Source: Lama glama (taxonomy: Eukaryota). From it: a stretch of DNA of 64,000 nucleotides. The stretch lies in the NCBI GenBank assembly GCA_028534125.1, contig CM052816.1, positions 10,046,001 through 10,110,000 of the forward strand. The letters run 5' to 3'. Below, piece after piece: positions 1 through 42,476 of the stretch. The notes under the pieces were generated by a model. The model ran no database searches and was not told the origin of the DNA. It worked only from the letters and a program-made list of their open reading frames with translations. How positions within the stretch are numbered: the stretch's first letter is position 1; each line of letters begins with the position of its first letter. Made by a program: the position numbers and the translations under genes.

Positions 1-294
1 TACATGGAACAGAGTCAGTCTGAAGTACCTGGAGGATGTCCAGACTGTCAAGAAGGCGCTTAATATCCGGTCTGAAGCTCAGAGGAGAGATCTAGGAAAA
101 AAGATAACATGTATTTTGGAAATAAATAAATGTGTGTATAAATATGTATTATCTGATATCTTTTATAATTATTTGATTACTTTTTCATGGCCTGTCTCCC
201 CCAACCAAAATGCAATGGAAACTCCACAAGGGCAGGAGCTGTCATTTTTATTCACTGTTACATACCCAGAGGTGAGGACAGTTTTTGGCACACG

Positions 295-767
295 GTAAGA
301 CCTGGGAGGGTCTAGGATTTTACCCTCTTTGGAAGCTGACAGGTCAGCCTGCCACAGTTAAAGGGATGCCAGCAGAAGACACAGCCTCCTGAGTCAGAGG
401 AATGAGATGCAACCATTCAATAGCACGTCAGAGTGTCAGCATTCGCTCTGGTTCTCCAGAACCAGTCTCCCTAGGGGCACTGAGGAGGGCTCGGGGTACC
501 TGCACCGGAAGGCCAGTGTGCCACAAGGGAAGGAGGCCAAGCTTTTAAAAACCCCCTATCTTTTTAAAAGGGCACTAGGCCCGCCCTGGTGAGAGATTAT
601 CTTACTATAACCAACGGTAAACAAACCTCCCCTTTACTTCAGGCTTTCTAAGGCTGTTTATTGTACAAACGCTCTTGAGAAAATTGATTGAAACACAGGC
701 AGTCAGTGTCTTTATCCACAAGACGGGCAGAAACACGAGAGAGAGTGAAGAATTGCCTCCCCAAGCA
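295..767 (-). mobile_element. Old solo LTR, MER74-like (ERVL), inserted next to an L2 3' remnant
   Basis: Ends GTAAGACCTGGGAGGGTCTAGGATTTTACCCT and GAATTGCCTCCCCAAGCA resemble the reverse complement of MER74-family termini (recognition only). Confidence 0.65.
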
Positions 768-1299
768 ACACATAGCGAACACAATATGTATTTTGAATGA
801 AAGATTAACACTCTGAGGGAGGTCCTAGTATTATTTCTGTTCTTAGATAAACAAATTGAGGCACAGCTGAAGTGAACTTCTTGTAAAAGAACCTGGAACT
901 ATTATGTGTCTCTAGTGAGCCCACGCCAGCCCCCGAGCACACGTACTCTTTAGGGAACTGAGTCCTCCCTGCCTCTAACCTGCCCCTCTGTTAGCCACTT
1001 TGGGCTTTTGAATGGGTGATAGAAAAAGAGAGAAATGAGACAGAGAATAAAAAAGGGGAGCTTAAGAATGGAGAAGGTTTTTTAGATATCCACACCTGTT
1101 CACACATCCAGAACTACAGAGTGCAAGGAACTCCGAGTTCACCTTACAGATGAGAAAACCAGGCCTCGAGGGAAACAAAGGGGGCCTTTCAGTGGTCACA
1201 GAGGAAGTTAGGGGGAGAACCAACTAACTAACCACGAGTGATCTCTTCCTGACAGTCCTTACCTGGCATATCTCTGGCCCAGCTATTCCTCTTATCTTT

Positions 1300-1501
1300 C
1301 TGACACAGGTGACATGCCCCAAACCTGGGGGCAGGCTAGGCTACAGAGTCAATCAATAACCAAGGGGATCTGGGCCACAGGGCAGCAGGTGGAGCCTGGC
1401 ATCCTATGCAGCCTATATGACCCCTCCAGTCTCAGGGTTCTGGAGACAAGTGGCAAGTTTAGAGCAGTTTTCGACTGAGCTCTGGACATAGAACTTCAGC
1501 C
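1300..1501 (+). promoter_or_regulatory. SPINK1: SPINK1 proximal promoter and 5' UTR: HNF1-type site, E-box, TATA-like box
   Basis: GTCAATCAATAAC at 1348-1360 (HNF1 consensus GTTAATNATTAAC), at about c.-150 where human SPINK1 has its HNF1 site. CAGGTG E-box at 1386-1391 (candidate PTF1 component). TATATGA at 1414-1420. Confidence 0.75.
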
Positions 1502-1556
1502 ATGAAGATAGCAAGCATCTTTCTTCTCAGTGCCTTGGCCCTGTTGAGTTCATCTG
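1502..1556 (+). CDS. SPINK1: SPINK1 coding exon 1 (signal peptide)
   Basis: gccATG Kozak context; encodes [18 protein letters not shown](G); donor GTAGGT at 1557. Confidence 0.97.
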
Positions 1557-4500
1557 GTAGGTGTCTTGGCATATTTTTCTAATTTGTGTGAGACCTTTTT
1601 GACCTGTTACTTTACTGAGCACATTACCGTCTAGATTTAGAGTTTAATCTTGGTCAGCTCTTTTGATCCTAATAAGATGAAATAAGACCAGTGGATGAAA
1701 ATTTTACATAGAAAAAGGGATTGTAACATCACACAAGGAAAACAATGTTACTAGTGGGAAGTGCCCGGAGGCGAAATGGTTTTCCCCAGGCAATAAGCCT
1801 GACCCTTTGTCAGAGATACGGCAGAAAAAAGAAGGGATTATTTCAATCTCAAGTACCTTTTTAACTCTGTAAATGGTTAAGGCCAGTTTACAAATTTTAA
1901 GTTCTCATGGAACCACATAAATAGATAACAATGGTTTACTAAAGGCAGAGTTTGATTCAAAATTTTGACCTACAGATTATTTCCAGAAAAATATTCTTGA
2001 ATAGATGGTGTGTGTATAACCCCCAAATGGCTTGACAACTTTGACAATCTGAAACCACAGGATAGAGATCAGCTTCCTTTTTGCCACTGGAAACGATGAA
2101 CACTTTTAACTTCTTATCAGATCCAGCAAACACACCTGCTGACAGGCAACTCGGCACTTTGAGAAGAAGACAAGCAATATTGTTTGTTGTATTTGCTAAA
2201 TATTTATGGGGGCAATAGTCCCTTTTCCCCATCTCATGCGTATTTATTAATACAGATGGACACCTGTAGTGACCACCTGCTCATCCATTTTCAGACTCAA
2301 CTAGATTCTGAAATTCTGCTGGGACCTTCTTCTCCAAGCCCATAGGTGTCTCATTATTTTTCAAGACATTTAGCTAGGAAGAACTACCTCCTTACCCAGA
2401 TCACCTCAGAGATTGTTAATATCAAAACCAAATCTCACCAGCATTTCTTCCTTTGGATACTATCAGATTAGTTCCCCTTTCCTGAAATGAGCTCACCCAC
2501 AATCACCATTCTCTACATGATGTCAGCAAGACCTGCTATTTTCTGGGGAATGAAGCATGGCAACTTTAAGCATCTACTATAAGTTCAAGAAATGTGAATT
2601 GTACTAATAGTGTAATGCAATGGAGGGAAAGAGCTCCATTTTGTAACATTCCTTACAAAAGAAGACACATGTAATTGCTAAAAGTTAGTTTTGTATCAGA
2701 ACACCTGGTTAATGCTAGTGGTAACTGTTTCACAGCTAGTCATACAAACTCTCCATAGCTTCATGGATAAACTGAGATCAAGATACTTTTAACTTTCCAC
2801 ATTACTAACTGTGAGATCAACAGTCTGGTAACTGGTCGTTACTAGTGGGCATTCAGAAGACATTTGCTCGGCGCCTGATACATTTCAAGCAGTAAGTACA
2901 TCATTTCTATTTTCAAGCAAATGGAAATTGAGATACTTTGGTCACAATCAAATTTTTGCATAACTTTTTGAGGTTTCAGCATGCAGGGAGTAGATACCAA
3001 TGAGATGTCCTTGAAAAAAAGGCAAAATAAGAAGGAGCGGGTAGCGACCAGCAGAGAATTCACAGATTTAAATGGAAGCAGAAAATTCTGAATGACCCAA
3101 CCTCACCTATCTGATTTATGTTTTCTAGGTAACACTAATGCTAACTTCCTGGGAAGAGAGGTAAATACAATTTTGTAATTTCTTATCTCTGGGGCTAGGA
3201 CTGTTTGTTCCAACCAAAGCACAGTCTGTCACCTTTTACTTTAGCCTGAACTTAATACGAGGAGTATAAATGCTGGCAAGGCTTAACCTATAAATGTGGG
3301 TAATAACTGTAGTTCCCCCACAGGCGTTTATGCTGAAGGACAAATTCACCAATACCTAAACAGTTTCTATGCAGTCAATTAATGCTTGTTATAAAGGGGT
3401 TTTTATATATACTAGGGCACTCTGGTAGGGCAAGGATGTTCAGTGGAAGCCTTAATATAACTCCACGTTGCCCTTCCTCCTTACAGCCAGTTTGACTACG
3501 TTGGCATAAAGTTCTCCCCATCAACAAGATGAAGCTCTAATTTATAATGAGCAAAAATAGTAATAAACTCGGTTCTTTCTCTAGAAGTATATTCTGTATC
3601 TAACTTTTCCATTTTTCTTGAAATTACCATTTATAATGTAAATTTCAGTAACGTTGGAGACCAAAGGAAGAAGTGTCCCTCTCTCATTACATTTATATCT
3701 AGTGGGAAGGCAGATGACAAACCAAAAGTACGAGTAAAATAAATTATTATATCTGTGATATGTTCTAAAGAAGTTTTGGTACCATTAGAAACCTAGCTTA
3801 GTTAGCTCAGGGAAGGTGCCCTAAAGTCGGTGAGCTTTATTTTCAGCCATGAAGGATAAGTGGGTGTTACCAACATATCACCAGCGGGGAGAAGCAGTAG
3901 CATGAGGCGGTTAGGAGCTAAAGCTCAGGACCTAGACTGCCTGGGCTTGAGTCCCAGATCCAGGAATCATCAGGTGTGTGGCCCTGGAGGATTCAGTCTT
4001 TCTGTCACACTGTCTTCACCAGAAGAAGAGTACAGTACAACGCTCCCAGAACAGTTGTACAGTTTAAATATAACACAAAAAAGCACTTAGGACAATGTCT
4101 GGCCTCTAACAGTCTGTCGATAATTACTAATTCTTACTGATGGTAGAGGAAACAGGCTGTGCAAAGACTGCAAGGGTGGAAGGAAGCACCTTGCGTCTTT
4201 AAGTGATCTGAAGACCAGGGAGGTGGGACTATCGTGTGCTGGGATGAACATGCCCGCCGGCGTGGCTGACCAGACCGACGGGAGCCAGCCCCTGCAGTAA
4301 TTGTCAACTTGAACATTAACCCACTCGCCTCATTCACACCTCACAACACTGTGGGCCAGATGGGTGGGGGAAAAGACAGCATCATTGCCATTCTGCAGAT
4401 GAAGTGACTGTGGTTCAGACACGCCAACAGATTTATAAATGTCACACAACTTGTAAATAGCAGAGGCATTACTTCAAACCAGGGTTTCTGACTCCAAATC

Positions 4501-7500
4501 TCGGATTCTTCCTCTTGAACACTCAGTATCACTCTCCCAGTTATCATCATGCTTCCATCTTTAAATCGATCGACTCCAGGAAGGTTTTAGAAATTTTGCT
4601 ATAAAGTCAAAGAAGGAAGAATGATAGAAAGTGACTCTGTTTCATTCCATTTTTAGGCTAAATGTAGCAATGAAGTGAGTGGATGTTCCAAGATTTATAA
4701 CCCTGTCTGTGGGACTGATGGAGTTACTTATTCTAATGAATGCATGTTATGTATTGAAAATACGTGAGTATACACTTTAATTTCTTTTAAAATATATATT
4801 TTAAGCTAGATGTATTCCAATATTTACATATATTATTCCTCTAAGCCCCAGTGAATATACCAATAACATTAATCTTACCATGAGAGAAACAAAGTATCTA
4901 GTTTTCTTCAAAACAACTCTTGATCTCTTTTTCTCCTTATTACATATCTGTTATGATCATATATAGAGGTGTGAGAGTGTGTGTGTGTACTTGGATAGAA
5001 AATAGTATTTACTATGTCAATCATTGTGTGAGGCACTTAATTTTCACAATGACTCCATGAGGTAAATAATTCCAGGCTTATTATACACAGGAAGAAATTG
5101 AAACACAGTTTAAATAACTTGCTCAAGATCACCCAGCAATGAGTGGCAGATTAGGGACAGAATCCTTGTTCTTTCCACTACCAGACTAAGCATTTCCAAG
5201 ATCCAGGAGAAAATCTAACAAGTGTTGTCTCCCAGCTTGGGTACACTCAAGGCTGCCACCGTGTGGCCGATGGTGGTATAAGCAACTTTTGAAAGAACTA
5301 ATTCTGCCTGCTGAGATTTGGAGACGTCTGGAGGCTTTCTCTAGGCCATAAAGGAGACAGACGCATTCCAGTAGGAAGGAAAAACTGAACAAAAGTGAGA
5401 AAGGAATTAATGGTATGGTATCAAAGATGCTAAGGAAAGGACAATGGAACAGAGGATGAAAAGCGTTTGAATGGTTCTCGCGATTTTTAAAAAATCATTT
5501 CTATGATAAAAACCTAAGTAAGCTTTTATAGCAGACAGTAGGTAGTCTGGATTTTTTTTTAACCCATACACCCAAAATACCTTTGAACTTCAAACATTTT
5601 CCTTGGTGACAGCAAAGACTGTGTTTCCTAAAGCCCTCAAGTATGCAAACCCAAATTATCTGGATTAGGGACCAGAAATGTACTTTTATAACACGTTAGC
5701 ATATGGATGTGAGAGCCAGCCTCAGTGGAGTTTCTGACCTGACAGTAGGTGGGCAGGTGATGGAAACCAGACTCAGGAACTCAGAGACATAGATTCGCCA
5801 CAGATTTTTTATCTTAGCCAGCTACTGAACACTTACGTGCCAAGCATTCTGCTATCTCCTCTGCTTTCTTTGTGGCTATAACTAAGAAAATAGTACAAAT
5901 AAGGTAGCTTCTTGGAACTTATGACAAATGCCATCACATGAGGTGTGAGCAACATGACACAGCAGTGAAGGAGAGACACAGATTGCTTGCTATTGAAAGG
6001 GTTAAGAAAGGATTCATGAAAAGGATGTCACTTAAACAGGGGTCTGCATTTTGATAGTATCACAAAAACATCCCAGGTTAAATAAAGGTGTAGAATGGTC
6101 AAAACCAATAAGAGATTCCACAAGTGACCCAGAGAACTCTAACTTATCCTGGAAATGACTTGGTATTAAGACCTTGATTTAGGCTCAAATAACTGCATAC
6201 ATTTTCACTACTCCACTGCTTAAATTCCCTACACCATGAACCCTCTTCCTGTCTGCTTTAAATCATTTCAGAAAATCCTCAGTACTTAACAAGAATTGTG
6301 GAAAGATGTCCCCAGGGAGACAAATCTAATATCCTGAACTTTAAGGCCCCCCAAACATTAGGTGTTTTGCTTTTTAAAAAATTTTCCACATTAAAGACTT
6401 GTAAAAGGAACCTGAAACCACTTGTTAATTTTCTCATGGCCTATATTGTTGACATTAAAGTCAAACATTGCCATCTAAGGGGAGGAGAAAGCAACAGAAC
6501 AGCCTTGAGACTTGGGCAACTTCCAAGTGCCAAGATCAAAAGGCCCAATACATAGAGTGAAACACTGGAAAATATGAGCACAGAGCTGGGACACCCTGTT
6601 TCCTTAGCCTTTAAAACCTACCAGCCCAACCAGCTCCTTCTGTTCTTTCAAACATATGTAAATATGTGAGCAACATTTGAATAACAGAAAATGTAACTTC
6701 TCTTCCCATATTTCCCTGATAAGAGAACAGGTCTAGAGAGAAAATGTGGCTTTTTCAAATGCAACATATTGTCAAATGTATCATCTTGCCTTTCTCTCTA
6801 CTGCCTATTAAAAGCTCCAAATAATATAGTAAACTAGAGCCAGGCTCTAACGCTAGCTGTTGGGTTCTGAGACAGGACAAACAAGGACCTGAATCACCTT
6901 GATCCTTATGTACTTGGCAGATATATTCAGCAAGGGCTTTTTTCCTAATTCTTCTACGTCTTCTTAGGGGATCTATACTGACAAATTCTTTTCTATAGAT
7001 GAGCATTTTCCCGTAGAAATTTCTGCAGTGATGGAAATGCTGTCCAACATGGAGTCCTCTCGCCATGGCACTAGCACTTAAATGTGGCTACTACAACTGA
7101 AAAGCTGGATTTTTAATATTAATTAAGTTTAACTGATTTAAAGTTAAATAGCTATATGTGGATACTGTCAGCTATCGTAAACAGCGCAGCTGCAGAAAAC
7201 GGGTCAACCCGTGGGCTCTGTTTAGTTGTTAACTATAGCAGGTATCATATGGGGTAAGGATAAGATATCCTTTTGCAACATCTCACAGATGTGAATATCC
7301 AGAGTTCTAAGGCAAAAGATAAATCAATTAGAAGGTCCTGAAGTAGCCTGGGCACCAGCTAAGATGGAAACCTGGTGGCTAGGACAACGACACCAGAAGT
7401 AAAAGAAGCAACCATGGATTAAAGATGAATTTCAGAGGGTTATTACAATGCCCCACTAGATCTGGAAACTCTGCAAGGACAGCATTTTCCCCTTCTGTTG

Positions 7501-7756
7501 TATTCCTAGTGTATGTAATGGTTCTGTATCAGTTATTTGATGAATTAATGAATAAGTGAGTAAGTAAATGAGTAAGAGAAATTGAAATGGGAATAAACCT
7601 CAAACTTCTCTATTTTACATAAAGCTAATCTTTTATCCTTGTCTTTCTCCCATAGTCACATTTTTGTCAGCAAAGTTTAAGCTGATTTTTTTTCCCATTC
7701 TCTTCTACAGGAAGCGCCAGGTTCCTGTCCTCATTCAAAAATCTGGGCCTTGCTGA
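1502..7756 (+). CDS. SPINK1: SPINK1, pancreatic secretory trypsin inhibitor (Kazal type 1); spliced CDS join(1502..1556,3129..3160,4657..4763,7711..7756), 79 aa
   Basis: Manual splicing gives [79 protein letters not shown]. It has a signal peptide, six Kazal cysteines, the PVCGTDG-TY-NEC motif and a K-I reactive site. Coding exons are 55/32/107/46 nt and all introns are GT-AG, matching the known SPINK1 structure. Confidence 0.98.
3129..3160 (+). CDS. SPINK1: SPINK1 exon 2
   Basis: Acceptor ttttctAG; 32 nt encoding (G)[10 protein letters not shown]; donor GTAAAT at 3161. Confidence 0.96.
4330..4530 (-). mobile_element. MIR SINE in SPINK1 intron 2
   Basis: MIR-core-like run: cctcacaacactgtg...ccattctgcagatgaagtgactgtggttcaga...gtcacacaacttgtaaatagcagag...tctgactccaaa. 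Confidence 0.65.
4657..4763 (+). CDS. SPINK1: SPINK1 exon 3 (Kazal domain core)
   Basis: Acceptor tttttAG; 107 nt encoding [35 protein letters not shown](T); donor GTGAGT at 4764. Confidence 0.98.
7000..7192. mobile_element. MER3-like hAT-Charlie DNA transposon remnant in SPINK1 intron 3
   Basis: tagaaatttctgcagtgatggaaatg...gcacttaaatgtggcta...ttaaatagctatatgtgg...acagcgcag resembles MER3. Confidence 0.6.
7711..7756 (+). CDS. SPINK1: SPINK1 exon 4 coding part
   Basis: Polypyrimidine tract plus tacAG acceptor; encodes [14 protein letters not shown] then TGA at 7754-7756. Confidence 0.97.
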
Positions 7757-7814
7757 GAATCAAGGTTCTGAAATCCCGTCAGAATACTATGACGTGTGGC
7801 TGGCCTGATTGTTG

Positions 7815-7820
7815 AATAAA
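7815..7820 (+). terminator. SPINK1: SPINK1 polyadenylation signal AATAAA
   Basis: First AATAAA after the stop codon, 58 nt downstream, followed by T/GT-rich sequence. Confidence 0.85.
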
Positions 7821-9773
7821 TAATTCCTGTTGCATCTAAATACTTCCTGTTGCTCCCATATGCTTTTATGATTTTACCTCAAAGGCATGTTTGATTGTAC
7901 TGAGGACAGAGAATGGAGGCAAACTCAGAATAAACCAAGTTTCCCAAAACACAGCAATTCGATAGTTTTGGACAGGGTTTCATGATGCTTTTTCCTTCCC
8001 CATCTTCCTGACGTTCTGAGGACTCTGTCTCAGGGAATGTGATTGCAGATATTAAGTGACAGGACACAACTGATCATGAATACATGTAATCCCATGGACT
8101 GGCATTTTAAGAAATAGTTGGGAAACCCTCAGTGTAGGAACATGTTGCCCATCACCTTTCACCAACTGAAATAATCCCTTTTGGTTTCCTTGGGATTTAA
8201 TTGAGCATCTGTTGTGCCTGGCACTGGTCTAGGTACAGAGACATATGATTTCAAAATGTTACCTGTCTGATAGAATAGAGTTTAGTCTTAAGGTTTTTCC
8301 ATGTATCTTAGGATGTAGATTTCAGGTTAGACACAATTTTCTCAAAGAGGCTCTGAATCATTGAGGAAATGAAAAAAGCTACATTTTCTCAACTATGCTG
8401 TGGAGGAGCCTCCGTATTCAGTCTTCATTCTCCTCCAGCAGAGGCCACTCCCCAATAGTTACCGAGGTGAGTAGCAATGGTATAGAGCTGCCTGCTCTCC
8501 CTGGTAGCCTGAGGACTGCATCTAGGGCTTGACCTGGAGATCTGCTTCTTTGAGCCTGACAGGTTTGTGCTGAGATAACCAGAGGAACAAAGACCTGCTT
8601 CTGAACTAACTTTTACCACCAAACCAACCCCAGATGATCTGCCATGAAAGGAAGGGACTATAGACCAGAGGAACTGACTATGAGGCCTTTGTGCAGTTCA
8701 CTTTGCTTTACACATGGGCCACAATAACTCTGAAAGGTTATCCTTATCTTGTGAGTAAACTTGGAAAAGTTAAGTAACCCAACTAATAACACCAGCAAAT
8801 AAGGTGGTAAAGTTAGGCTTTTAATTCTGGGCTGCCTCCAAATCTAATGCTTTTTAGTCTAAACCACATTCATTTAGGGAGGACTTTTCCTTTCCAATTT
8901 CTTCCATAAGAATATTAAGCACCATCCTCATACTGAATGGTCTATGTGTTTACAGGCAGGGACAGCAAATAAGGTAGAAATAAGGAAGGGCCTCATAAGG
9001 AAAAGAAAGTATCTATAATCACTAATAAAGAGAAGGAAAAGCAGCTTGAATTCCTAAGTTCATACAAAGAAGTAGCCCTCAAGTAGCCCAGAACGGAGAA
9101 GTGGACAGAGGAGGAAATGACCCTGAGATGTGTCAGGCTTCCTGATAAATAGTGGAGGATACATCACCGAGTGAACCAGAAGTAACCCATAAAATCTGTC
9201 CCACACTTGCAAAACACAGTTGCTTGACACTCTATGGTTTAAGTTAATTTCTTGTGATATTCAGAATATGTCTTGAGGTTTAAATCTGACCACTAGAGGA
9301 TGCTGTGGTCTGCCAAGTGATTCAGCCAAACCCACACCTGGCAGCTCACCAGATAAGTTAGGGATGCAAGATGGCTTCCAGCATCTTGTTTGTGCCGCCA
9401 GAGGACATTTCAAGGGCATCCCTAAGCTTAAGGAACTTTGCCACAGTAAACAGATTTAAACACTGAATGCTAGAAATTGTCTTGTCTAATCAGACCATTT
9501 TACAGTTCTGGAGAAAAAAGTTTTGGAGGTTATAGGTAGAGGCAACACATAAACCCAGACTGCCTTTTAATGGTTCTGCTGACCTGTTAAAAGATAAACT
9601 TATGCAACCCACATTTCTGTCTGGCCGTATTTTGGGGGCCCCCAACCTGACTGATGCCAAGCCAAATACTCAGGACACAAAACAAACAAGAAGGCAATAG
9701 CTGTCCCTAGGAGAGAAAGGATGGACAACCAATGGTACCAGAAAGCAAATTCACAAGTCACAATTCAAAGATC

Positions 9774-10326
9774 TGAAACTGAGCAGGACTCTGTGAGACC
9801 TGTCCCAGTACAAATCCTTTCCCTGTCCCCTGTTTCTTGTTTGCAGGAAAAAGGCTTCAGCCTCCTGGACCATCCTGAGTTCCAAAGGGAAGATTCAAAC
9901 AGTTGCAATGAGGGAAGTAAGGGAATGAAGAAACAATGGAGGAGGAATCAAGAATCTATAGAGCAGTGATTAAAGCGGGGTCCTGGCTCCTCCTCAGGGA
10001 ATATACATAATATCTTTGAGATCTTCTGCAGGAACTAAGGCCCCCACCCACTGGCGGAGGATGGCAACTTCAGGCTGAGCACAAGGTTCCTGGAGCACCG
10101 GCCTGTTACCTCACCACCAACCAGTCAGAAGAAAGTCACACAGCCTGCTGCCTTCACCCCAAATTTTGCCCATAAAACATCTTCCCTGAAAACCGTCAGG
10201 GACTCCGGGGTTTTTGAGCACGAGCCATTCATTCTCGCGTGGCCCTGCAAACTTTCTCTGCTCCAATCTCGACGTTTCAGTTTGGCCTCACTGTGTGTCA
10301 GGCACACGAACTTGTGTTGTGAAACA
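9774..10326 (+). mobile_element. Solo ERV1-type LTR nested in the internal region of the older provirus
   Basis: TGAAACTGAGCAGG...TGTGAAACA termini; TATA-like CATAAAA near 10171; resembles cetartiodactyl ERV1 LTRs. TSD is not clean (gatc vs gaat). Confidence 0.7.
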
Positions 10327-10760
10327 GAATTCTTACAAATGTTTTTTCCTGTCTATCTGAATTTGGAAAGGAAGGGACAAAATGAAATTTTACCTTCCTC
10401 TCTCTACCAGGCACCACAGATAGGGACTGAGACGGACGAGCTGACTTTGGTAAAGATTCTTACCCTTCGTCGACTTCTGCCAGAATTCAGAGAGATCCTG
10501 TATGCTGGCTTCAGAGAGAGTGGGGTGTCCCAGCTGGTCTCGTCCTGGTCATCAGGAACTTTAAAGAAGGAAAAATAATTTTCCATCCACCCTTCATGGT
10601 GAGTGGCTGAGACGCGCTTTTCTCCAGGGATCATCTAGGTTAAAAATCCTCCACTGTGGCCAACGTTATTCACCATTATCTTTGGTAAGGTTACTGCTTG
10701 TTCTCCCTTCAAACAATATTTTCATTCGCCCAAGGCCTCACGCTGCACCGAGAACAGCGG

Positions 10761-11650
10761 AAGTCGGCCCCAGTCTGACCTAGGACCCGGTCGGACCCGG
10801 GAACCGGTCTGGTTTCTAGGTCGGACCCGGCCTTATCCCCGGACCCAGTCTGACCCAGGACCCGGTCTGGTTTCTAGGTCGGACTCAGTCTGACCGCGGA
10901 CCCGGTCTGACCCCGGAACCGGTCTAGTTTCTAAGTCGGACCCAGTCTGACCACGGACTCGGTCTGACCCCAGAACCGGCCTGGTTTCTAAGTCGGACCA
11001 AGTCTGACACCGGAACCGGCCTGCCACTGGACCCAGTCTGACCCTGGACCCGGTCTGGTTTCTGAGTCGGACCCAGTCTGACCCCGGAACCGGCCTGACC
11101 CTGGACCCGGTCTGACCCCCGGAACCGGTCTGACCCCGGACCCAGTCTAGTTTCTAAGTCGGACCCAGTCTGACCGCGGACCCGGTCTGACCCCGGACCC
11201 GGTCTGGTTTCTAAGTCGGACCCTGTCTGACAGCGGACCAGTCTGACCCCGGACCCGGTCTGGTTTCTAAATCGAACCCAGTCTGACCGCAGAACCAGTC
11301 TGACACCGGAACCGGTCTGCCACTGGACCCTGTCTGACCCCGGAACCGGTCTGACCCTGGACCCGATCTGACCCCGGAACCAGTCCGACCCTGGACCCGG
11401 TGTGGTTTCTGAGTCGGACCCAGTCTGACCCCGGAACCGGCCTGACCTTGGACCCGGTCTGGTTTCTAAGTCGGGCCCGGTCTGACCGCAGACCCGGTCT
11501 GACCCTGGACCGGGTCTGGTTTCTAAGTCGGACCCAGTCTGACCGCAGAACCAGTCTGACACCGGAACCGGTCTGCCACTGGACCCGATCTGACCCCGGA
11601 ACCGGTCTGACCCTGGACCCGGTCTGGTTTCTAAGTCGGACCCAGTCCAC
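10761..11650. repeat. CpG-rich complex tandem array of 17-bp (GGACCCGGTCTGACCCC) and 23-bp (GGACCCGGTCTGGTTTCTAAGTC) monomers
   Basis: 12 copies of the 23-mer at spacings 58,57,57,74,92,57,56,142,57,57,108 bp, i.e. about 23+17n with n=2,2,2,3,4,2,2,7,2,2,5. About 35 copies of the 17-mer. Confidence 0.97.
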
Positions 11651-11891
11651 CACCGGAAACAGACCAGTTTCTATGTCCCACGCAGCCCAGCTCCAGCTTG
11701 TTCTAGTTTCAGAACCTAAGCGGGAGAAAGAAATGCTCAATCTGAGAACTCTTAACACAGAAGCTGTGGATGGAGGATGGAGGGAACTTACCCACCAGCT
11801 CCAGGGGCGGCGAGAAAGCGACTCTCAGGGCTCTGCAGGTACCTTCCCTGCTGCTGGTCGTTGCTCCTGGGGGACCCGGGGGGACTCTGGG

Positions 11892-11909
11892 TTCCCTCTC
11901 CTGTCACCA
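11892..11909 (-). other. Retroviral primer-binding site, tRNA-Leu-like
   Basis: Minus strand reads TGGTGACAGGAGAGGGAA, 4 nt from the LTR end; 15/18 match to TGGTGTCAGGAGTGGGAT, the complement of a tRNA-Leu(CAG) 3' end. Splice donor G|GTAAGT lies on the minus strand at 11792-11786. Confidence 0.7.
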
Positions 11910-11913
11910 GACC

Positions 11914-12290
11914 TGTGAAAAGATACACTGAGGCATATTAAAAATTTTAAGAGTTTATTTGAGCAAAAATCTATTCGAATCAGGCAGCATCCAAACCAGC
12001 AGATAGGAAGGAGCTCCGGAGGAGCTGTGCAAAGTGCCCTTTACAGCCAGAAAGCAGGGAGACAACGTGCACTAGACAAAAAACAGGATATTTATTGCAG
12101 GGTCACTTTCCTTTAGGGGATGGCTGATACGTCAGGCTGGTTATTTAACTAATGCTGATTAGGCGATTTCTGATCGACTAGTTTAAGATTCCATTTCTGG
12201 GAGAGATGAAACTAAAATTAAGTCTTGGTTTGGTGACACAAGACTTAGCATAAACGACTCCATTTGGGGCCTGTTGTCTTATTTTTAACA
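11914..12290 (-). mobile_element. 5' LTR of the ERV1 remnant (377 bp)
   Basis: TG...CA termini (minus strand starts TGTTAAAAATAAG); minus-strand AATAAA at 11954-11959 near the LTR 3' end; PBS adjacent. Confidence 0.8.
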
Positions 12291-12739
12291 TGTCCATCAA
12301 AAAGCATGTAGATTACTGCCTTTGTGTCTGGTGGGTACATTTTTTAAAAGATACTTATAAACTGGAATGTGTTTAGAGAAGAGAGACTACCACAATAGAT
12401 AAGAATTTGAAAGTTTTGGTCCTATGATAGATGGCTGAAAGAAGTTTTCCTTTCCTTTGGTCTGAGGAAAGGAAACCCTTAGAAATCTGGGGAGTCTTTT
12501 CAAACAATTTAAGGGAGACAATGTTAACATCGTGAAAGCAGGAACTTTGTTCTTTTTTCACCGCTGTATTACAGGTGGGAAGACAGTATCTAACATCTAA
12601 GAGGTGCTCAATTAATATTCTTTTTGTTACATAAACGAATGAGAAGAAGAATTAACATGTTCTTATTGTCCCCAAAGGGTAGAATTTAGACTAAGTGGGT
12701 GTGGGATTAAAAGGAGATGGATTTGAGCTCAGTAGGAAA

Positions 12740-12950
12740 GCGTATAGTATAGTTACTAAAACCAGGGGCTCTGATACAGAGTGTCTGAGCTGGAATCTGA
12801 TTTTTCCCACTACCTAACCATGTGTTCCAAGTGAAGTCAGAGAATTTCTCAGTGTCAGTTCCCTAATATGGGTTAATAATAACAGTTCCTTCTTAGGGCA
12901 GTCAGCACAATGCCTGCCATACTGTAAGTGCTCTAATACACATTCACTAT
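12740..12950 (+). mobile_element. MIR SINE
   Basis: gcgtatagtatagttactaaa...ggctctg...ccactaccta...tctcagtgtcagttccc...cagcacaatgcctgccatactgtaagtgctc. Confidence 0.6.
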
Positions 12951-13855
12951 TATTGTTGTTGCTGTTATTTATCTCAGAACCCTTCGAGCTCACTAAAAAG
13001 GTTTCCTGGTACTTCTTCCTGATGGGAGGAGCTTTGCTGCTTTAGGTAACAATTCATGGCATTGTTGAATTGTCAGGGATTTAATGGAAAAGATTCCTCA
13101 ACTGGATACAAGGTTGGACTAAAATCTCTCTGCTTTTAACTGTAAAAAAAAAAAAAAAATTCCAGAATTATAAACCACACCCTCAAAAGAGGAACTCAAG
13201 AGTAGTGGCTGAGAATGAGTTTTGTGGATTAAGAAGGGTTTTGTGGGCCCCAGTAGAGAAGAGGGTAGTTAACCCAGCTCTCACTGTTAGTTCCTCATCG
13301 CTGGGTGAAAGTAAGGTCTGCAACACTCTAAAAATAAGAAACGCAGGATAGTTTCTTTTATTGGTTTCAGAGTATTTGAAATATAAAGTTATTGGACAAA
13401 AGAATATACCCAAAGTTTTTTTGTCACATTGGAGAAGCAACCTTGTTTGAAATTAAACATTTTTTAAAAATAAAGTATTTTTATAGTTGATGCGTATTTT
13501 TATAGTTTAGGAGCCTCCTGAGAAATAGGACCGTGAGAAACATTGAACTTTTATTTCCATTTCTCTGACCCAATTTATCCCCCGTTAACCTTTGCTTATT
13601 TCAACTAAGCAAAAATAAAATGTATCTGCATAATAAAGGAAGCAATTACATAAAAGGTGCCAAGCTCTTACCTTTCAAAGCCTTAGCACTGTCAACAATT
13701 TCCTTTGTTTTCTTTCATTATTTAAGCAGTACCTAACTGTTAGCTAAAAATAGGAAATACGTAGGTAATAAAATGATGTTCATGAAAAAGGAATAATATA
13801 CACTTTTACTTTTTAACAAGTCAGTATTCATTGGAAAACCAACAGACAAAAATAA

Positions 13856-13908
13856 AAAAGGCTGGTTGACGATCAGGTCAAAAGGCTGGTTGATGATCAG
13901 GTCAAAAG
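13856..13908. repeat. 24-bp tandem duplication (AAAAGGCTGGTTGAYGATCAGGTC x2.2)
   Basis: Two copies differing by a single C/T at a CpG. Confidence 0.9.
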
Positions 13909-16224
13909 ACACTTGGTTTGGTGGAGTGGTGTTTGTGGCCATGTGTTTTTTTTTAGGTGGTAATAGGTGACTATTCTACTTTTGCATGTGGAGTCATGAA
14001 TAAGGCATGTAAAATGAAATTAATACTATTTGAGGGAGAGGAGTTATTCTCTGTTGAAGGAAGAAAAAATGGCAGATTAGGAGTCACCAGTGAAACTGTT
14101 GTATTGGAAACAGAAAAGTAAACACAAAGAGAAAACTACTGAGAAAAGGAGAAAAATACATACCTGCAGAAGTTAGAGGGGCAAAAAGCAGAAGGAACCA
14201 TGTGTGCTATAAAAGTAAAAACAAATAATCAAAGAAAAAACAAATGAAAAACATAGAGCCATAGACACCTGAATAGAAGAAAAATGAGCAGAGAGAAAGA
14301 GTGCAAATTTAGAAAGTTTTATAGTGAATATGATTCCGGAAGGCCACAGTCACAGTACATTATTATATTTTGAACTGGGCATGCTAAATTTCAGGGTGTT
14401 TTTAAGTTCTTTTATTTACTGAAATATATGTACTTTTTTTAAAAAAAAAAACTTGCAGCTTTATTTTAGAAATGATTTTGGAGTTCTAGAGAACTTTAAA
14501 ATATTCAGAATTACAACTTAATATAAATTAACTTTCAAGCCTTAAAGATTTAAATTAGCACCAGGTGAAAGTTACTGAAAAATAATAGGAGTTAACCTGT
14601 ACTGGGTCACTAATTCTATGTGCTAGACCCCACATCAAATGCTTCCCTTGTGATGTTCTGCACAAGGACCCCGGAGATCCTCATTTTAGGAATGGGAAAA
14701 CAAATCCTCGCTTACTCAGGGTGAGCACTAGTCAAACTACAGAGCTCCTTGGCTCATCTCCCACATTAATGTGTCTGTCCATCTCTCACTCATAACTGCT
14801 CCTCTCTCTGCCTCCTGTAACAGCGTTCAGTAGCCTCTCCTTTAAAAATAATGACTCCAGGTTTCCTGCAACTGCCTCGCTCTCTGGTCCTTCTCTGACT
14901 GAGCTGTTTAACCTCCCCATAGCTCACATACACACATTCGTTATTCCCATGCACTCTGTCTAATTTTTTCTTGGCTTATCAGAATGAAGGTATGACCCCT
15001 GAGAACTCTTTCTTAGCACAACTCTTCTTAAGTGCCCCTGTTTTTACTCCTTTTTTGTGCTTGCTATTTTCTCAAACATCTTTCTGAGATCTCTGCCACT
15101 GCAGAAGCCCTGGTTTCCCCAAAGTTTTCTAACTTTTCCTCTTTTCTTGGTTTTCTAGGCATCCTCAACACTCTCAGATATTGGAGCCCCGTCAGTAAAT
15201 CTGTTTAACAGCTAAACACTACATCCCCTTCCCCAAACCATGCTCTCCAGAAAAATCAGTCGTGTCTAGTAGAGCTAAAAAGTGAAGACCAACAAAGTTT
15301 TCCATAGAACATGGACAATAGAATAATTCCTAAAACACACTGTCCAGTCCAACCCTCTTCTCTGCTTCCTCAAATATTGCCCCAAGCCCAGCATTACTCC
15401 TGATGTGACTTAGTGTAACTCACGGGCTGCTCTCCCTGTCCAAGGTTATTCAGCCTGTCTGCCCTCCAGCATATGCTCCTACTCTATACACTGAACAATG
15501 CCAGCCCTTCCTGAATCAGTAAATGCTTTTAAACCACAAAGTAGTTAAAGTAGTATTCTGATGAGAAAGCTGTAATGGCGATACCTTTTCTACTATAGAA
15601 AGCCCTAACTTCGCCTGGTGGTTTTAAACCCTTAGGAATTTGAAACCTCACATGTTCCTGCCTTCGCTAGGAATTCTTCCCGCCATACTGTCTTTCTGCA
15701 TTCCTTATTTACCTGTCACTTTTACCTATTTAATAAACGTCAGACAGACACACAAGTGCTATCACTTAAGGTAGTGCTTGTCAGACAGACTCCATAAGAA
15801 TCCCCTGGAGATCTTCTTTACGCTTTCAGTGGCCATGCGTCAATCGCCAGATATTTTAGGTCAGTTGATTTGGGGTGGAGCCCACTGATTTGTCATTGCT
15901 CTTAATGGTTAAGTCTCCCATGAATTTCTCCTGCCTTTCTAAACTGATATCGTTCAAATTCCCACAATAATTTGTTGGTTCCTCCCTTATTGTAACCACT
16001 GTCAACCTTGAAACACAAGAAAGTGTGTTAGTGTTTGTTTTTTAGTTTCCTAAGGGGAGTAATTGAGTCCTAAGTATCTCTGTATTCTGTACTATACAAT
16101 CGCAGCACATTCTCAGTCTACAGACTTAAGTTAATTTCATATCAAAAATCTGGTCTTGGGTAAGATTTTTAAAGAATTGGGATTCCTTTCATATTATGTG
16201 AAAATTCCTGTTTGAAAATTGATG

Positions 16225-16690
16225 TGTGGGGAAGGAAAACTTTTCCTCTTCCCAGTTAGATTCAGTGTCTGGGGGCCTGCAAATTAAATGGGCAAATAAC
16301 AGATTAACAGGAGAAAAACGGCTTATTCCTATGCATATGAAAGCTAACGAAGTCACCAGCTTACTAAATGGTTAAACTTAGAGGCGTGTACACCTAACTC
16401 AGTGGGGGAAAGGAGGGAGAAGAAAAGGCTTCTGTGGGAAGACAAATAGAGACAAATGGGTTCTTAGGAAAGCGGAAGATGGAAAAGTTTCTGACGATGT
16501 TTGTCTGTGCAGGTGTGGATGGTCTTTCTACCTAGTTCAGGGCCTTATTTCCATCCACAGTGGTTTACTCTTATTCTTGCTTCTCCCTGGAGACTCGTCC
16601 CAAAGAGGGAAATAACGGCAGCCTAATTTCCCAGAAGTTGCTTGTGTCTCTGGATGAGCTGTTCCTTCTGCTCAGTAGATAAAATTCTGC
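16225..16690 (-). mobile_element. MER34-like ERV1 LTR
   Basis: TGTGGGGAAGGAAAACTTTTCCTCT...GGGGCCTGCAAATTAAA...CAGATTAACAGGAGAAAA resembles the reverse complement of a MER34-family end. The right boundary is uncertain. Confidence 0.6.
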
Positions 16691-19600
16691 GCATACTAGG
16701 ATGGGAGAAAGGGCCACTGCCCAGGGAGAAAGACAGCAAGACCTTCACAGGAAGTAAGGTTGAGGGGCTGGGAGTTGCTGCCTGTCGCCCTCCCCACCTC
16801 CTGCTTTCAGTGTAGATGGTAATGAGAACAAGGCTTTGTAGCCGGGAGAGGAAAGAACATGTAAGGCACTGAGACACCCACCTAAGCATCAAGGCAAGTT
16901 ACTTTCAAGGAAAAGATGATCACTGTTCTCAGAGATATCATCCCCATGCTAGAGTTCTCACTCATTTCACACCCACACTACCAACACCCATCCAAACTCT
17001 GCCCCAGGGTAACTTACGCCCTTCCTTCTCTCATGCCCACCTTGTGTGTTCCTGCCTTTCCCTATCAGTCTTTACCACGTTTAACTAGAGTTCTGTTGGA
17101 ATAGAGGGACCGTGTCATCCCTAAAGATGTGTCTATAAGAGCAAAAATGGGTATTTTGCACACCTGACTAGGAAGCAGAGGTTTATTAATAGATGATTTT
17201 GGAAAGCAAGATAGAGTTTTCCTTTTAGACATTCAAAAAGTCAAAGCCAAAGGTTACTTACCTGATACAAAGTACTTCCAACAAACATAATTGAAAGAGA
17301 CTGGTAGCAGTGATGGTAAGTTCTGAAAGAGAGAAGAGGGCTAACTTGGCTTATTCTAAGGAATCTGCGTGAAATACTCCACTTGAGTGTTACTGGAGCA
17401 GAAGGAGACCGAGGCTGGGACACAGAGCAAAGTCCCCTAACACCCCAACAGCCCCTGTTTCTCCCGATAACATTGGCTAGAAGTCAGTTTCAGGTGGTAG
17501 GCAAGGAACTAAGAGAAAAATTCACCCCTGTCGCAGGACCCTTTTAGCAGTGACAGGTCTGTGCTCTGGTTCCGGGGAGGAAATTGTGAAATTCCCTAGA
17601 AGGGTTGGAAGGAGGAAGCAGGAGCAGGTAACTCTGCTCTCTCCACTCTGACCTGTGTGCCGGCAACAGTCCTGTATTGTCCGACCTAAGGTTCCTCATG
17701 GAACTCAATATACCCAGGTGGGAAGACCTGGAGGTATTTATAATCCCTGATGGGGCCCCGACACCTGCCAGTAAGGTTGCTGTGTGATTATCCACTCATC
17801 CTTTCAGAATGAAAGTTGCTGCAGAGGTCAGTTGTTTAAAAGGAAAACAGTGGGTCAGGCATCAGGTAGAAACGTCTGACTCTGTCCTCCTCAACTTCCG
17901 ATTTCCACCCTTCGGTAGTCACCAAATCCCCACCTATCTAATTCCCCTAAAAACACAAAACGTAGAGAGGGGTATATATTTCTGTTTCTTCCCTGTGACG
18001 TATCCATGTTACAGAAACCACTGAAGCATGTGCCGAGATAATCATTTGAAAGTAGCTTTGAGTGAGCAAGTTTCGGGAGGGTCGGTTACTCCCCCTGAAC
18101 TGGGAGGGAGCACTTTCAGTGTGAGGGCAGGAGAAGCACAGCTGTAAGGGACTTGCAGGGCAAGACTGGCCAAAATGCGTCAAGGAAGGAACAGAGCAAA
18201 ACCAAATCAAGCCTAAGAATAGGGTTTCTCGGGGCTCAGATCCTGTCCATATCAAAACGATTTTTAGGGTGCCTTTCCTTTCTTCCCAGCTAAGCTCTCC
18301 AGTTTACCAAGTCCCGTATCGACATAGCCCATCAGCTGACCCAGCTTCTAAATCTGATTTTTACCTGTTCATCCTACTGTGCTCTCAACACTTCAGCTGG
18401 ATGTATCTTGCCCCAGGCAGGTTCGGTGTAGGACATGTCCATCAGTCTCCAGAGATCAACTTACTTTAAATGGGCACATCTTCCTTGCTGCGAACAACAG
18501 GGGTTTTTATTGATGTTTCAGGAAAACTGGGATGGAGTCATTCTCCTAAGATAGAGCATTGCATTTACTTACTCAAAGCCACTGGGAAAGAATGATTGAT
18601 GAGCCAAGTTTGCATTTCACCAGTGTAACACAAGGAGTCTGTATTCAGTGTTGCTGTGTCCCTTGGTATGTAGTCAGTGGAAAATATATTTGATTGGAGC
18701 AGAAGAGAGCTGTTAAAGTGACCTCCTTTATTTTAGTATTAAAGTTAGGTTACAAATAAATCAGATCTTCTATATAAAAACTTGCATTTTCAAAGTCATT
18801 AAGTAAGTACAAAATTACTAATGTTCAGCTCTTAAACCAAGAATGATCTTTGTACTGAAGCACATGACAATTTTTAAAATCAGATAAACTGATTTGCTGG
18901 CCTGTGAGACTATTATAAATGCAAATGGGAGATTTCAACTAAAAGATTTCTCTGTAAAGATTTGTGTGACATTCTATGTATGATTATCTGGATCCTGCAG
19001 TAAACATGCCCTCACGTTGAACTCCCTCTTGTCCTGTCTGCTTAGCTTGACTTTCTGATTTGTTTTGCTCTGACTTTCCTTTTCACCTGGGATTTCTTTC
19101 CCAAATGCTTCATTGCACAGAGCCTCCTCCTGTTACAGAGAATATATTTCTAATGCTTTTTCCTGCAACATATTTGAGACATTTCCTTGTATCACAAACT
19201 GGCAGAAAGTCAAATCAGTGCCAGTGCGGCAAGATTTGTGAGGGAGGAGGATGGAGAAGGCAGAGTTCGGCTGTTTTTAAACTCCCTTATGTAAGCGGGC
19301 TCTACGCGGTGTTGGAACTCTACTTCCTTGAAGAATAATTGTGTGTATCATAAAATTGGTCAACCGTGAAAATTATTACTAGACCAGGGACAAGGCCAAG
19401 ATGATTCCCCAGATGTTCAGAAGCTCAAGGAGCACTCCTGTCATGTGAGAGCCATGGGGCAGAACCTCAGGAGCCAAAGGGAGGAGACAGAAGATTCCAC
19501 TTCATTCTACTTAGTTTAGAGCTTCTGTTTCACTCGTTTGCTCTAAACTAAGTCATTTGTTGTCTGGCGTCATTATCTTGGGAGAGTCAACTAACTGAGA

Positions 19601-21269
19601 GTCAAATAACTGAAGGAGAAGGAACATTTCATTGATATTTAGGACCCTCTTCAATCTAGAGCCTTGAGGGGCAAAGAAAAGTGATTTCCTGATCATGCCT
19701 AGTTATGTCAAAAATCTTGGCAAATTTAAGCAAGATAGTCCTATAGGAAGCCTTCAGGCATCTCCTTATTTAAGACTGGTTCAGTCTTCTGGAAGAGAAG
19801 GGGTAGCAGATGCCTATAAAGGTACCTGCTGTTTAAAAGTTTTGTGATTTCAGTGTCACTAGTGTACAACCAGGAAGACTGGTAGAGATTTTGGTGGGGG
19901 AAAGCAACTCAACTTGGGGCACAGAGTCAAATCCAAACATTCCACTGGTAATTGAGAAGGAAATAAGGTTTACACAGTATCTCTATGTTTGAGAAAACAG
20001 AGATTATTAGGGGCCAGAGAAAAGGAGAGAAAGGGTAGGAGGTACCTTCTCATGTTGTGATAGAAATGAAATGAATTATAAATGTCTGGGTTCAGAGACA
20101 TTGTGAAATAACAGTTTTCTAAGAAAGATAGACTAGAGGGAAATGTACCTTAAATATGTTTCCAGTGCTGGCTCAGAGATTGTCCTTAATGCAGGAAGCC
20201 TGTTCAAGGCAGCTCTTTGGAAGGGGAGATTTGATTTACTTAAGAGGACTGCCTGGAGGCAGAGGCCCAGAACACTGATGTAAACCACCTGCTGGGAGAG
20301 TCATTAACTCTGTGCATAAATGCAGAGGATGCTTCAAGCAGTTGAGCTGTGAAGACGAAGGAGAAAAAGATAACCAGTAATTATAACTGACTATAAGTCT
20401 CGACTTGAATTTTAGGTGAATATTGTTTGTTTCATTTTGCATCTCAGTGGCCTGACACGTTGGAGGCCCTCCCTACAGTAATGAAGAAATAACCATAAGA
20501 TTTGCTCCTTGAAGGAGCACTAGAGAAGGATCCAAAGAGGGGCACAGGAGTGAGTGTCCCATTGGACCCAAGTCCCACCATCAGCCTTGGTTTCTCAGAC
20601 AGGCTCTGGGCCCCAGAGACAACACATAGGCAGCACTGAGAGCTGCACAGAGGCTTCGTGATGCGCCTCCTTCCCTTGTCCTTCTAGTCCTCTCCTACCA
20701 GGTCCCTACACCAAGAAAGGGTCTGAAATGAACCCCAGCCTTCTGCTCTACCTCTCTCTGACTACGTTCAGGGTGAGACAAACTGGGGAGAATGGGAACA
20801 TGCACGGGAGGCACACAGGATACTGCGCTCCTCCTCATTCTACTTGCGTTGATCTGTTGCCCATGGGAGGCTGTGACCTACAGCACCTGTCCAGTAGTTG
20901 GGGCACTTAGGACAGACACTAGAGCAGGGACTTCTGAGCTCACATGCTTCTGGGTGCAAGAAAATGAAGACCTCGTTTCTGAATTATTTTTTTTCTGGGT
21001 CACAAAGACCCTTCTTAGACAGTTCTTGGGGCATAAGAAAAGGCTGCTTGAAACCATCATTCACTGGCATCCTCTCGTGTCTGCCTGTGGTCCTCTGCCA
21101 TGCAACCAAAGTACAGGAAACTCTGGGAGAGAGAATGGTCCTTCCTCTGTCCCTTTCTGGTTCACAGTGTGCAGTGACTTGAGCCTGAGTGGAGTCGTCT
21201 GGGAGAATGCAGAATGGTTACATATACAGCGTGAATCTTCATTTCTCCTCATTTCAGCTAATTTCTTCC

Positions 21270-40493: not shown

Positions 40494-42476
40494 TAATGCA
40501 TTTGATTTTACACACTGCCCCTCTTCATTTATTTGAATCAGGTTTACAGTTTAATTTCTCTGAGAATAAATGTCCTGTTTGGTTTCTATAGGGGAAGGCT
40601 CTTCAGTGGGCTTAATGGGAGGAATGGAATTAATATGCTCATGGCATGTCATATATTACATAGATTCACAACTCTGTCAAGTCCTGCTACCGTGGACCTT
40701 ATTGTAACAACTCCATAAAGTAGCGTAGGGGAAGAGGTACTGGGCTTGTATGTCATATCCAAAATTTTGTAACATGCTGTGTACTGAATCTTTAATGATA
40801 ACTTTTGACTTGGACAAATTAAAATTTCAGATATATCTATAGTAAGCTCTAAGAAATTAAGAGATGTCATAGTTGGCCCTGTTTCATGCAATGAACACAG
40901 GTATCTTGGGCTTTGTTTTATTTCCTTTGTGTTGAGTTTTCATTAGGATGTGGTTTTATAGGTGAGGTTGGTACAGTTTGAGCAGAGGCAAATCACTAAG
41001 TCATGGGCATAGAGATGACTATGAGTAGCATGTTTCAGCTGTGTGGTCAGACCCTGATGGGAATACGGGTCTGGTTTTTGATTCTACAACTTGAGACAAT
41101 TATATGACCTTTGCTGATGGCCCACAGAAAATGAACTATGTTTAAAGGACCACAAGTTGAACTCTCTAAGAAGAGATAGATAAACCAGGATCATTTCACT
41201 TGAAGAAGAAAAAACTGAGAAATGACAATCATTTGCTTCAAAGAGCTGAGGATTTTACATAGGGCATTGCTTCTTGCTATTTTGGGGACCTAGAATAGGG
41301 TCAGTGGGCTTCAACTTCATTAGAAAGAATGAAGATTAGAAATACAAAATGAAGAACTTTCTGGGAGCAAATTTGAATTGTCAACTGTGTAACCAGATAA
41401 GGCAGTGCATCTTTTTTTCATCAAAACCTGTAAAAGTATGCCGTAAACATGCATTTATTTGGGATGGACTGGATTCTTTCTTAAGAACTTCTGTGGCTTT
41501 TTCTAGAGTAGACTGTCCATGTAAGAGTGTGCTTTAGTTGTTTAACATTCGGTGCTTCTAGACCTGGGACAGTAAGACTCCATTTTATAATGAGCTTCTA
41601 AATTACAGAATCTGGGTATTTTTAAAGAAATCAATTGACCATCTGCTTAGAGGAATATATATGTTGTCAGGATGCAGGGAATTGAACATTTTCCTCTTCG
41701 TAAGAATCCTTTCTCAGCAACTTTAAGGAATTTGATACCTAATAACCATATTAAAATTATTGCCTTTTGTGTGGCTAATTTTGAAAACTGAAATGAGGCT
41801 TAGTGGGGTCTAGATACAAAATAATACAAGAGCCATCACTTTGATGTCAGAAAAAAGCAAAATATGTGCGCGATACATACGTATTATTTAAATGTGCTGT
41901 TTAACAACAAACACATTTACTTATCTTTTTCTCAAATGCTATCTTGAAAATGTCATTCTTGTTGTCATATTAAATATTTTGACTGGTATTTAAACTTTAG
42001 GAAAACTTGTTTTAGTTGGAATGAACCACACTTCGTGGTAGGATGTTCCTTATTTCTTCAAGTGACCTCATAACATATTTCAATTTTATATACATGCTTC
42101 TCAAGTCCATCAGGGTGGTTGGAAAATATCTAGAGTGTCAAAACTGTTTACATTTCTCATAGATTCATAAAAACATTGTTGCTTTGTTTTCCATGGTTGG
42201 AACCTAAAAGAAAACCAGATTTATCTTGGAAGTTTCAACTTAAATTACTCAATTGGTTTTTACTAAAATAAACTAGATTTATACTTGGTGTCACTCTGAG
42301 AGGTCAGTTACAGTTCCCTGTATTTGCACATCCCAACTGTTATTCTACCAAGTGAAAATGAGTTTCAAACATGGTGAATTAATAATTGAAAAACACCTAT
42401 TTGTAGACCTCTTATATGACCAGCACAGTGTGCGTATGCTAGCAACGTAGAATTTCCTTGGTGGGGAGGATACAGG

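Follow-up and report, generated by a model that had tools for sequence, protein, structure and literature searches.

A two-monomer, CpG-rich minisatellite in the leader of a truncated LTR retroelement downstream of a SPINK1-like gene in the llama

Several kinds of retroelement carry or give rise to tandem arrays. The VNTR of SVA retrotransposons is built of CpG- and GC-rich units of 30-50 bp, has a higher-order structure and a CpG-island-like composition, and moves with every insertion. In plants, tandem repeats lying in untranslated regions of LTR retrotransposons reportedly gave rise to satellites (Macas et al. 2009). A limited look at the literature on tandem repeats in the leaders of endogenous retroviruses gave plant review material only. 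Minisatellites that arise from LTR retrotransposons are listed in a review (PMC6947457, its references 103 and 104; Armour et al. 1989, Kelly 1994).

Here, we analyse an 890-bp array in a 64-kb stretch of llama DNA (the window, C1:10046001-10110000 of a 2.35-Gb assembly, which was searched for related sequences; positions below are those of the window). Like the SVA VNTR, it is a CpG- and GC-rich array inside a retroelement, with a higher-order arrangement and an island-like composition. However, the long VNTR of SVA resides in the mobile unit, whereas the expansion described here is tied to one locus, the other copies holding a short seed, and the host element lacks an Alu-like part, a SINE-R part and a poly(A) tail. 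It shares with the plant case the placement of a variable, expandable tandem repeat in non-coding sequence of an LTR element, but the plant repeats are said to lie in the 3' untranslated region and to have formed genome-wide satellites, whereas this one occupies the 5' leader at a single locus of a mammal. As in the LTR-retroelement minisatellites, as far as the listing in PMC6947457 goes, a short internal repeat of a dispersed element was amplified at one locus into a GC-rich array with units of 10-60 bp, and slippage or unequal exchange would be the amplifying process. Their seed is located in the LTR according to the same listing, whereas the seed in the window is in the leader, downstream of the primer binding site (PBS). 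Furthermore, the window array has two monomer types and a higher-order pattern, and the known examples are hypervariable, whereas the array described here is read from one assembly. Minisatellites born from LTR elements have long been known; what is new is an instance that combines two monomer types in a higher-order arrangement with the composition of a CpG island. It shows cleanly, and in a datable way, how a leader repeat can turn into a single-locus higher-order minisatellite of such a composition and, if animals differ in its length, it could serve as a VNTR marker beside a pancreatic trypsin-inhibitor gene.

The array occupies positions 10761..11650 and is read on the minus strand. Cutting at every occurrence of the head GGACCCGGTCTG with at most three mismatches yields 47 units between 10766 and 11637, namely 35 A monomers (nominally 17 nt) and 12 B monomers (23 nt, GGACCCGGTCTGGTTTCTAAGTC), all of which have the head GGA(C/A)CC(G/A)GTCTG in common. 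The A monomers are 17 nt long in 31 cases, 18 nt in two and 16 nt in one, and the remaining one is part of a 33-nt pair. The basic unit, B+2A, measures 57 bp. Behind successive B units, the runs of A number 2, 2, 2, 3, 4, 2, 2, 7, 2, 2 and 5, and an extra AA pair precedes the first B. Tandem Repeats Finder reported periods of 17, 57, 114 and 256 bp over 10761-11647: the 17-bp period spans 10880-11626 (40.8 copies), the 57-bp period spans 10761-11370 (10.9 copies, score 568) and 11359-11647 (score 368), and the 256-bp period spans 11069-11626 (2.2 copies, 90% matches, score 918). The 12-mer head, allowing one mismatch, occurs 32 times in the 64-kb window, every time at 10783-11626; in shuffled sequence 0.07 occurrences are expected, and none of 100 shuffles reached 32. 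As a head-to-tail array of units between 10 and 100 bp, it is a minisatellite.

The left third of the array (10766-10995) is a regular 57-bp AAB ladder, and the right two thirds consist of three larger blocks. In this block-duplicated region (10995..11637, minus strand), the three higher-order copies are marked by rare monomers ending in GACACC and GCCACT at 11005, 11301 and 11557, where the variant TGACACCGGAACCGG(T/C)CTGCCACTGG is matched exactly each time. The blocks differ by indels of A-pairs, with indels of 17 and 34 bp observed, and gapped alignment gave identities of 94%, 88% and 91%, the highest being that of 11251-11450 against 11507-11650, with one 34-bp indel. The initial annotation had proposed 17-mer and 23-mer monomers with a common head and a dominant 57-bp B+2A unit, which both the monomer parse and Tandem Repeats Finder bear out; the run order it listed is reproduced exactly by the parse. 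The variant monomers that it saw recurring near 11005, 11301 and 11557 are present at all three places, and the multi-unit duplications deduced from them are corroborated by the 256-bp period, the exact variant blocks and the block identities of 88-94%.

Upstream of the array on the plus strand lies a gene for a Kazal-type inhibitor, with a Kazal exon at 4657-4764 (Pfam Kazal_1, E 3.4e-15) and the last coding exon at 7709-7756, the stop codon ending at 7756 and AATAAA motifs following at 7815 and 7929. By similarity, this gene is presumably SPINK1. With the coding end at 7756, some 3 kb separate the SPINK1-like gene from the start of the array; the distance given previously is thus accurate, for a gene that is presumably SPINK1.

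The element that hosts the array is also read on the minus strand. Its 5' LTR (377 bp, 11914..12290) starts with TGTTAAAAATA and ends with ATCTTTTCACA, has TG...CA ends (TGTT at the start and CACA at the end) and an AATAAA motif about 45 nt before the end, and has homologues in the LTRs of 16 other copies. The LTR ends align across family copies, at an LTR p-distance of 0.26. Four nucleotides (GGTC) past the LTR end is a PBS-like 18-mer, TGGTGACAGGAGAGGGAA (11892..11909, minus strand). Scored against the first 18 nt of a tRNA-Leu(CAA) probe as printed in PMC7997516, the window 18-mer agrees with the tRNA complement in 14 of 18 positions, and another 21 family entries do so in 11-17 of 18. That probe, in the methods of the same paper, begins with the 17-mer TGGTGTCAGAAGTGGGA, which occurs in one family copy (L006); hence, going by the probe as printed, the 17-mer is the complement of the 3' end of that tRNA. 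In the whole assembly, we counted 20 exact 17-mers complementary to the tRNA-Leu(CAA) 3' end, compared to 0-2 for a reversed control, which suggests that further Leu-primed LTR elements may exist. The leader between the PBS and the array (11651..11891, minus strand) contains a splice-donor-like site, TGG/GTAAGT (GGTAAGT, 11786-11792, minus strand), the GT of which is kept in 11 of the 13 family copies that cover the site. The LTR, the PBS-like 18-mer and GGTAAGT confirm that, as initially stated, the array lies downstream of a PBS and splice donor on the minus strand.

Beyond the array, the non-coding internal region (10328..10760, 433 bp, minus strand) is homologous to 20 other copies, at p-distances of 0.23-0.25. 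It is followed by 553 bp of an unrelated repeat (9775..10327, no strand assigned) that is missing from all other copies: the flanking segments abut in all 27 loci that hold both of them (including L049, L050 and L053, which look like one locus on unplaced contigs), so that the insertion is private to the window. The inserted sequence is a dispersed repeat with a reverse-orientation match at another locus (L057, 71% identity), and its ends, which begin TGAGCAGG and close with GTGAAACA, suggest a putative solo LTR. A possible duplication of TGAAAC was noted at its edges. The internal region then continues for 172 bp (9603..9774, minus strand) and is cut off. Most family copies extend at least 900 bases past the point matching window 9603 (67-78% mutual identity), and the window lacks these bases; thus, the window copy is 3'-truncated. 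What is left of the 3' LTR is a remnant of about 18 nt (9585..9602, minus strand) that resembles the last bases of the LTR (GTTTATCTTTTAACA). A complete 3' LTR was not found, the comparison of the LTR with the 3' part scoring 24 against a shuffle maximum of 37. One family copy (L025) has LTR matches on both sides and, where the window has the 18-nt remnant, two others, L002 and L038, retain roughly the final 50-60 nt of the LTR. In these two (C1:12564575-12568033 and C8:16306084-16309508) and in the window (9585-9643), an early end of the internal region is joined to the last 18-60 nt of the LTR; the three junctions are similar but not identical, as would be seen with a deletion form that propagated or with recurrent deletion. 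The left flank of the element is TGACC and the right flank is TGTCC, identical at four of five positions, and L002 shows no target-site duplication.

The window copy was compared with its relatives by measuring from flank to flank. Among the 38 loci given, 18 have both flanks on one strand, and degenerate A and B units lie between the flanks in all 18, a typical decayed repeat reading AAGTCAGACCCAGTCTGACCCTGGACCCAGTCTGGTTTCTAAGTCAGACC. The presence of these units in every measured copy indicates that the B+2A architecture is a feature of the leader and is older than the spread of the family. The gaps between the flanks are short, 31-297 bp raw and -38 to 246 bp net of unaligned flank, and the arrays of the 18 copies mostly retain 0-3 CpGs, with 11 in L021 and 20 in L002. 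The latter is the sister copy of the window element, located 2.5 Mb away on the same chromosome (C1:12.566 Mb); the two differ by a p-distance of 0.118 in the internal part and 0.178 in the LTR, and each is about 0.25 from the other copies. The L002 array is 246 bp long, with the order AAB AAAB AAB AB, and lacks the GACACC and GCCACT monomers of the window. The window array, at 890 bp, is 3.6 times as long as this next net length. When 256 bp of the array were searched against the genome, no further long array turned up: besides the window and L002, only a few stretches of 46-180 bp matched, at 70-89% identity, the next matches being 140-180 bp long at 70-73%, and because the search skips very common words, the number of matches is a lower bound. 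A short sister array free of the variants, together with the lack of any other long array, indicates that the long array grew at this locus after the sister copies separated. Thus, the two-monomer motif is a family feature and, on comparison of the copies, the 890-bp length is a locus-specific expansion in which blocks were duplicated. The initial annotation had offered a feature of an ERV family and a local expansion as alternatives; both apply, the short motif (18/18 copies) belonging to the family and the length to the locus.

The array is therefore probably a minisatellite, expanded on the spot from a short leader repeat of an ancient, non-coding, tRNA-Leu-primed LTR family. The leader of the founding element would have contained one to three copies of the 57-bp unit (one 23-mer and two 17-mers) between its splice-donor-like site and the internal region, and one copy would have landed about 2 kb downstream of the stop codon of the SPINK1-like gene. 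There the seed would have been enlarged to 47 monomers; the array itself lies about 3 kb from the stop. We infer that growth proceeded by unequal exchange or replication slippage, in 57-bp steps at first and later in blocks of 250-350 bp. The blocks are 88-94% identical (6-12% divergence), too different for even the latest duplications to be very recent, although mutation is fast in CpG-rich sequence. The proposal of a recent locus-specific expansion therefore holds as to the locus, and as to age only in a relative sense. We predict that any consensus of the family would contain the short version of the repeat, with one to three 57-bp units. The array is an ordinary minisatellite derived from a transposable element, an outcome of repeat dynamics that shows no sign of function, and a function of its own is most unlikely.

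The composition of the array is unusual for its surroundings. Its 890 bp contain 68 CpGs at a GC content of 0.64 and a CpG observed/expected ratio (o/e) of 0.76, compared to 0.07 and 0.14 in the 1 kb on either side of the element, as expected from the earlier description of a CpG-rich array in CpG-poor surroundings. With thresholds of at least 500 bp, GC of at least 0.55 and CpG o/e of at least 0.65, 84 overlapping 500-bp windows pass, with starts at 10480-11340, and nowhere else in the 64 kb is there a CpG-island-like stretch; the island call made previously accordingly stands on formal composition. Each monomer carries up to two CpGs, so that the expansion produced a stretch of this composition. 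At the inner CpG site, the 47 monomers read CG in 28 cases, CA in 15 and CT in two; at the unit junction, they read CG in 30, TG in 10 and CA in four. Altogether, 37 of 94 potential CpG sites (about 40%) are no longer CG, and 31 of the 37 read TG or CA, which is the pattern that deamination of methylated CpG leaves, as judged from the letters at these sites. The array thus appears not to have been fully protected from methylation. Some of the non-CG states, such as CCTGG, are also present in old copies and may be ancestral. The parts of the window copy and of L002 outside the array have a CpG o/e of 0.35-0.54, compared to mostly 0-0.3 in old copies, and this greater retention of CpG fits a later origin of the two.

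Two observations count against a neutral account. First, the CpG o/e of the array (0.76) exceeds that of the element's own flanks (0.37-0.54), which could reflect either partial protection from methylation or amplification of monomers with intact CpGs. Second, identity between the window and L002 is 90% in the leader, compared to 79-88% in the LTR and internal parts. Together, they leave room for a putative partial hypomethylation of the array. Measured over 11651-11915, the leader identity is again 90%, and the LTRs and internal regions are 79% identical by BLAST and 82-88% by aligned-site distance. Gene conversion or lower CpG decay are possible causes of the better-kept leader.

These observations, the island-like composition that is unique in the 64 kb, and an enrichment of CCGGAA are what one would expect if the expanded array were a working CpG island, unmethylated in the germline and with promoter, enhancer or boundary activity near the SPINK1-like gene. 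CCGGAA, which we take to resemble an ETS core, occurs 10 times in the array and 0.08 times per kb elsewhere. We nevertheless consider a working island unlikely: CG is kept at only 28/47 inner and 30/47 junction sites, with losses to CA and TG in the pattern of methylated-CpG deamination, and L002 has the same CpG density in a much shorter array (20 CpGs in 246 bp), so that the density is independent of the expansion. A more specific version, in which amplification of the CpG-bearing leader motif made a new island that escaped germline methylation once past a density threshold and may now be a lineage-specific regulatory element or transcript start close behind the SPINK1-like gene, strikes us as distinctly unlikely. 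Such an escape would account for the better retention of CpGs and of sequence in the array and the adjoining leader than elsewhere in the element, and an unmethylated array would show a CpG island arising through tandem amplification.

Growth in place also has to be weighed against inheritance, that is, a sub-lineage of the element in which the leader repeat was already long and served, for example, as a packaging or dimerisation signal. The motif is found at the same place in all measured copies, which implies that the repeat was part of the leader of the active element. Furthermore, the monomers are quasi-palindromic (GACC.GGTC, ACCGGT) and the RNA of the array folds better than shuffled sequences (z -3.85). 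However, the opposite strand folds equally well or better (z -4.68), so that the fold carries no strand-specific signal, the closest relative has only the 246-bp array without the variant blocks of the window, and no other long array was found in the assembly; we regard an inherited long array as quite improbable. The array was considered as an RNA element on folding grounds and dropped, since both strands beat the shuffles, a property of the quasi-palindromic monomers. Comparison with RNA families returned only sub-threshold chance matches, the best being raiA with 27 bits against a cut-off of 101. G-quadruplex potential was likewise dropped, the sense strand having only one canonical motif. 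The junction of the B monomer had no match in metagenome contigs, and the A-A junction had none in viral contigs.

An assembly artefact in the array's length or order, through over-expansion or mis-joining, is highly improbable, because position-specific variants run throughout the array in a consistent higher-order pattern, there is no run of N near it (the only one in the window, 500 N, is at 42476-42975) and 14 DNA-like public runs under three organism labels contain most of the words of the stretch, although tandem arrays of such a kind are hard to assemble and even the best runs contain just 0.71-0.75 of the sampled words of 10100-12400. This range holds for all 14 DNA-like runs, and six RNA or possibly RNA runs contain 0.10-0.21; these shares show only that near-identical sequence is present in close relatives or in the source sample and have no bearing on expression, habitat or array length.

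We found no retroviral Pfam domain in 178 frames overall, comprising 131 stop-to-stop frames of at least 50 aa in window 1-20000, seven ORFs of 23-76 aa in the internal region (10328..10760), which had no Pfam match even at E <= 10, and 40 frames of a longer family copy (L088). A 6-kb extension of a longer family copy contained neither a retroviral domain nor a second LTR, and the 30 best Gag_MA loci of the genome had no DNA similarity to the element and no clusters of the monomers. A gammaretroviral matrix remnant downstream of the array, suggested by a faint likeness seen by eye, was dropped, Pfam finding nothing there. The only Pfam match at E <= 0.01 among the 131 frames of window 1-20000 was that of a 97-aa frame at 608-898 (minus strand) to DUF7807 (E 6.4e-4), sub-threshold at 19.9 bits against a cut-off of 27. 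The designation of the element as a provirus is thus contradicted by the absence of a retroviral domain in these frames, by the missing complete 3' LTR and by the truncated internal part. From its sequence, the element is evidently a truncated, non-coding relic of an old LTR retroelement family rather than an intact provirus.

The Leu-type PBS, the short LTR and the lack of coding capacity are reminiscent of ERV-L/MaLR-type (class III) elements, which we take as a lead only. The window element would resemble Leu-primed ERV-L/MaLR elements in its tRNA-Leu PBS, its 377-bp LTR, the absence of recognisable coding capacity, its age and its many copies; as to a putative membership in this group, the Leu-type PBS is the one pointer. 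Among LTR groups, ERVL-MaLR is the commonest in camelid genomes, and alpaca has many short LTR elements without ORFs, according to PMC8605555.

In the genome search, a query of the leader plus LTR gave 41 scored matches from 672 first-look candidates, and a query of the internal region gave 41 from 109. The pairwise p-distance among old copies is 0.234 in the internal part (19 copies) and 0.261 in the LTR (15 copies); since the copies differ pairwise by 23-26%, the family is old. At a neutral rate of some 1-2 x 10^-9 per site and year in mammals, this corresponds to several tens of millions of years per branch. The same differences speak against the suggestion of an undescribed camelid ERV family, if a young camelid family is meant. 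Just past the point matching window 9603, the internal region of five family copies (L006, L033, L037, L004 and L056) contains another small tandem duplication, whose unit, ATATGGC(T/C)(A/G)(A/G)ACAGAAA(A/T)GTGGGTT, occurs once or twice per copy.
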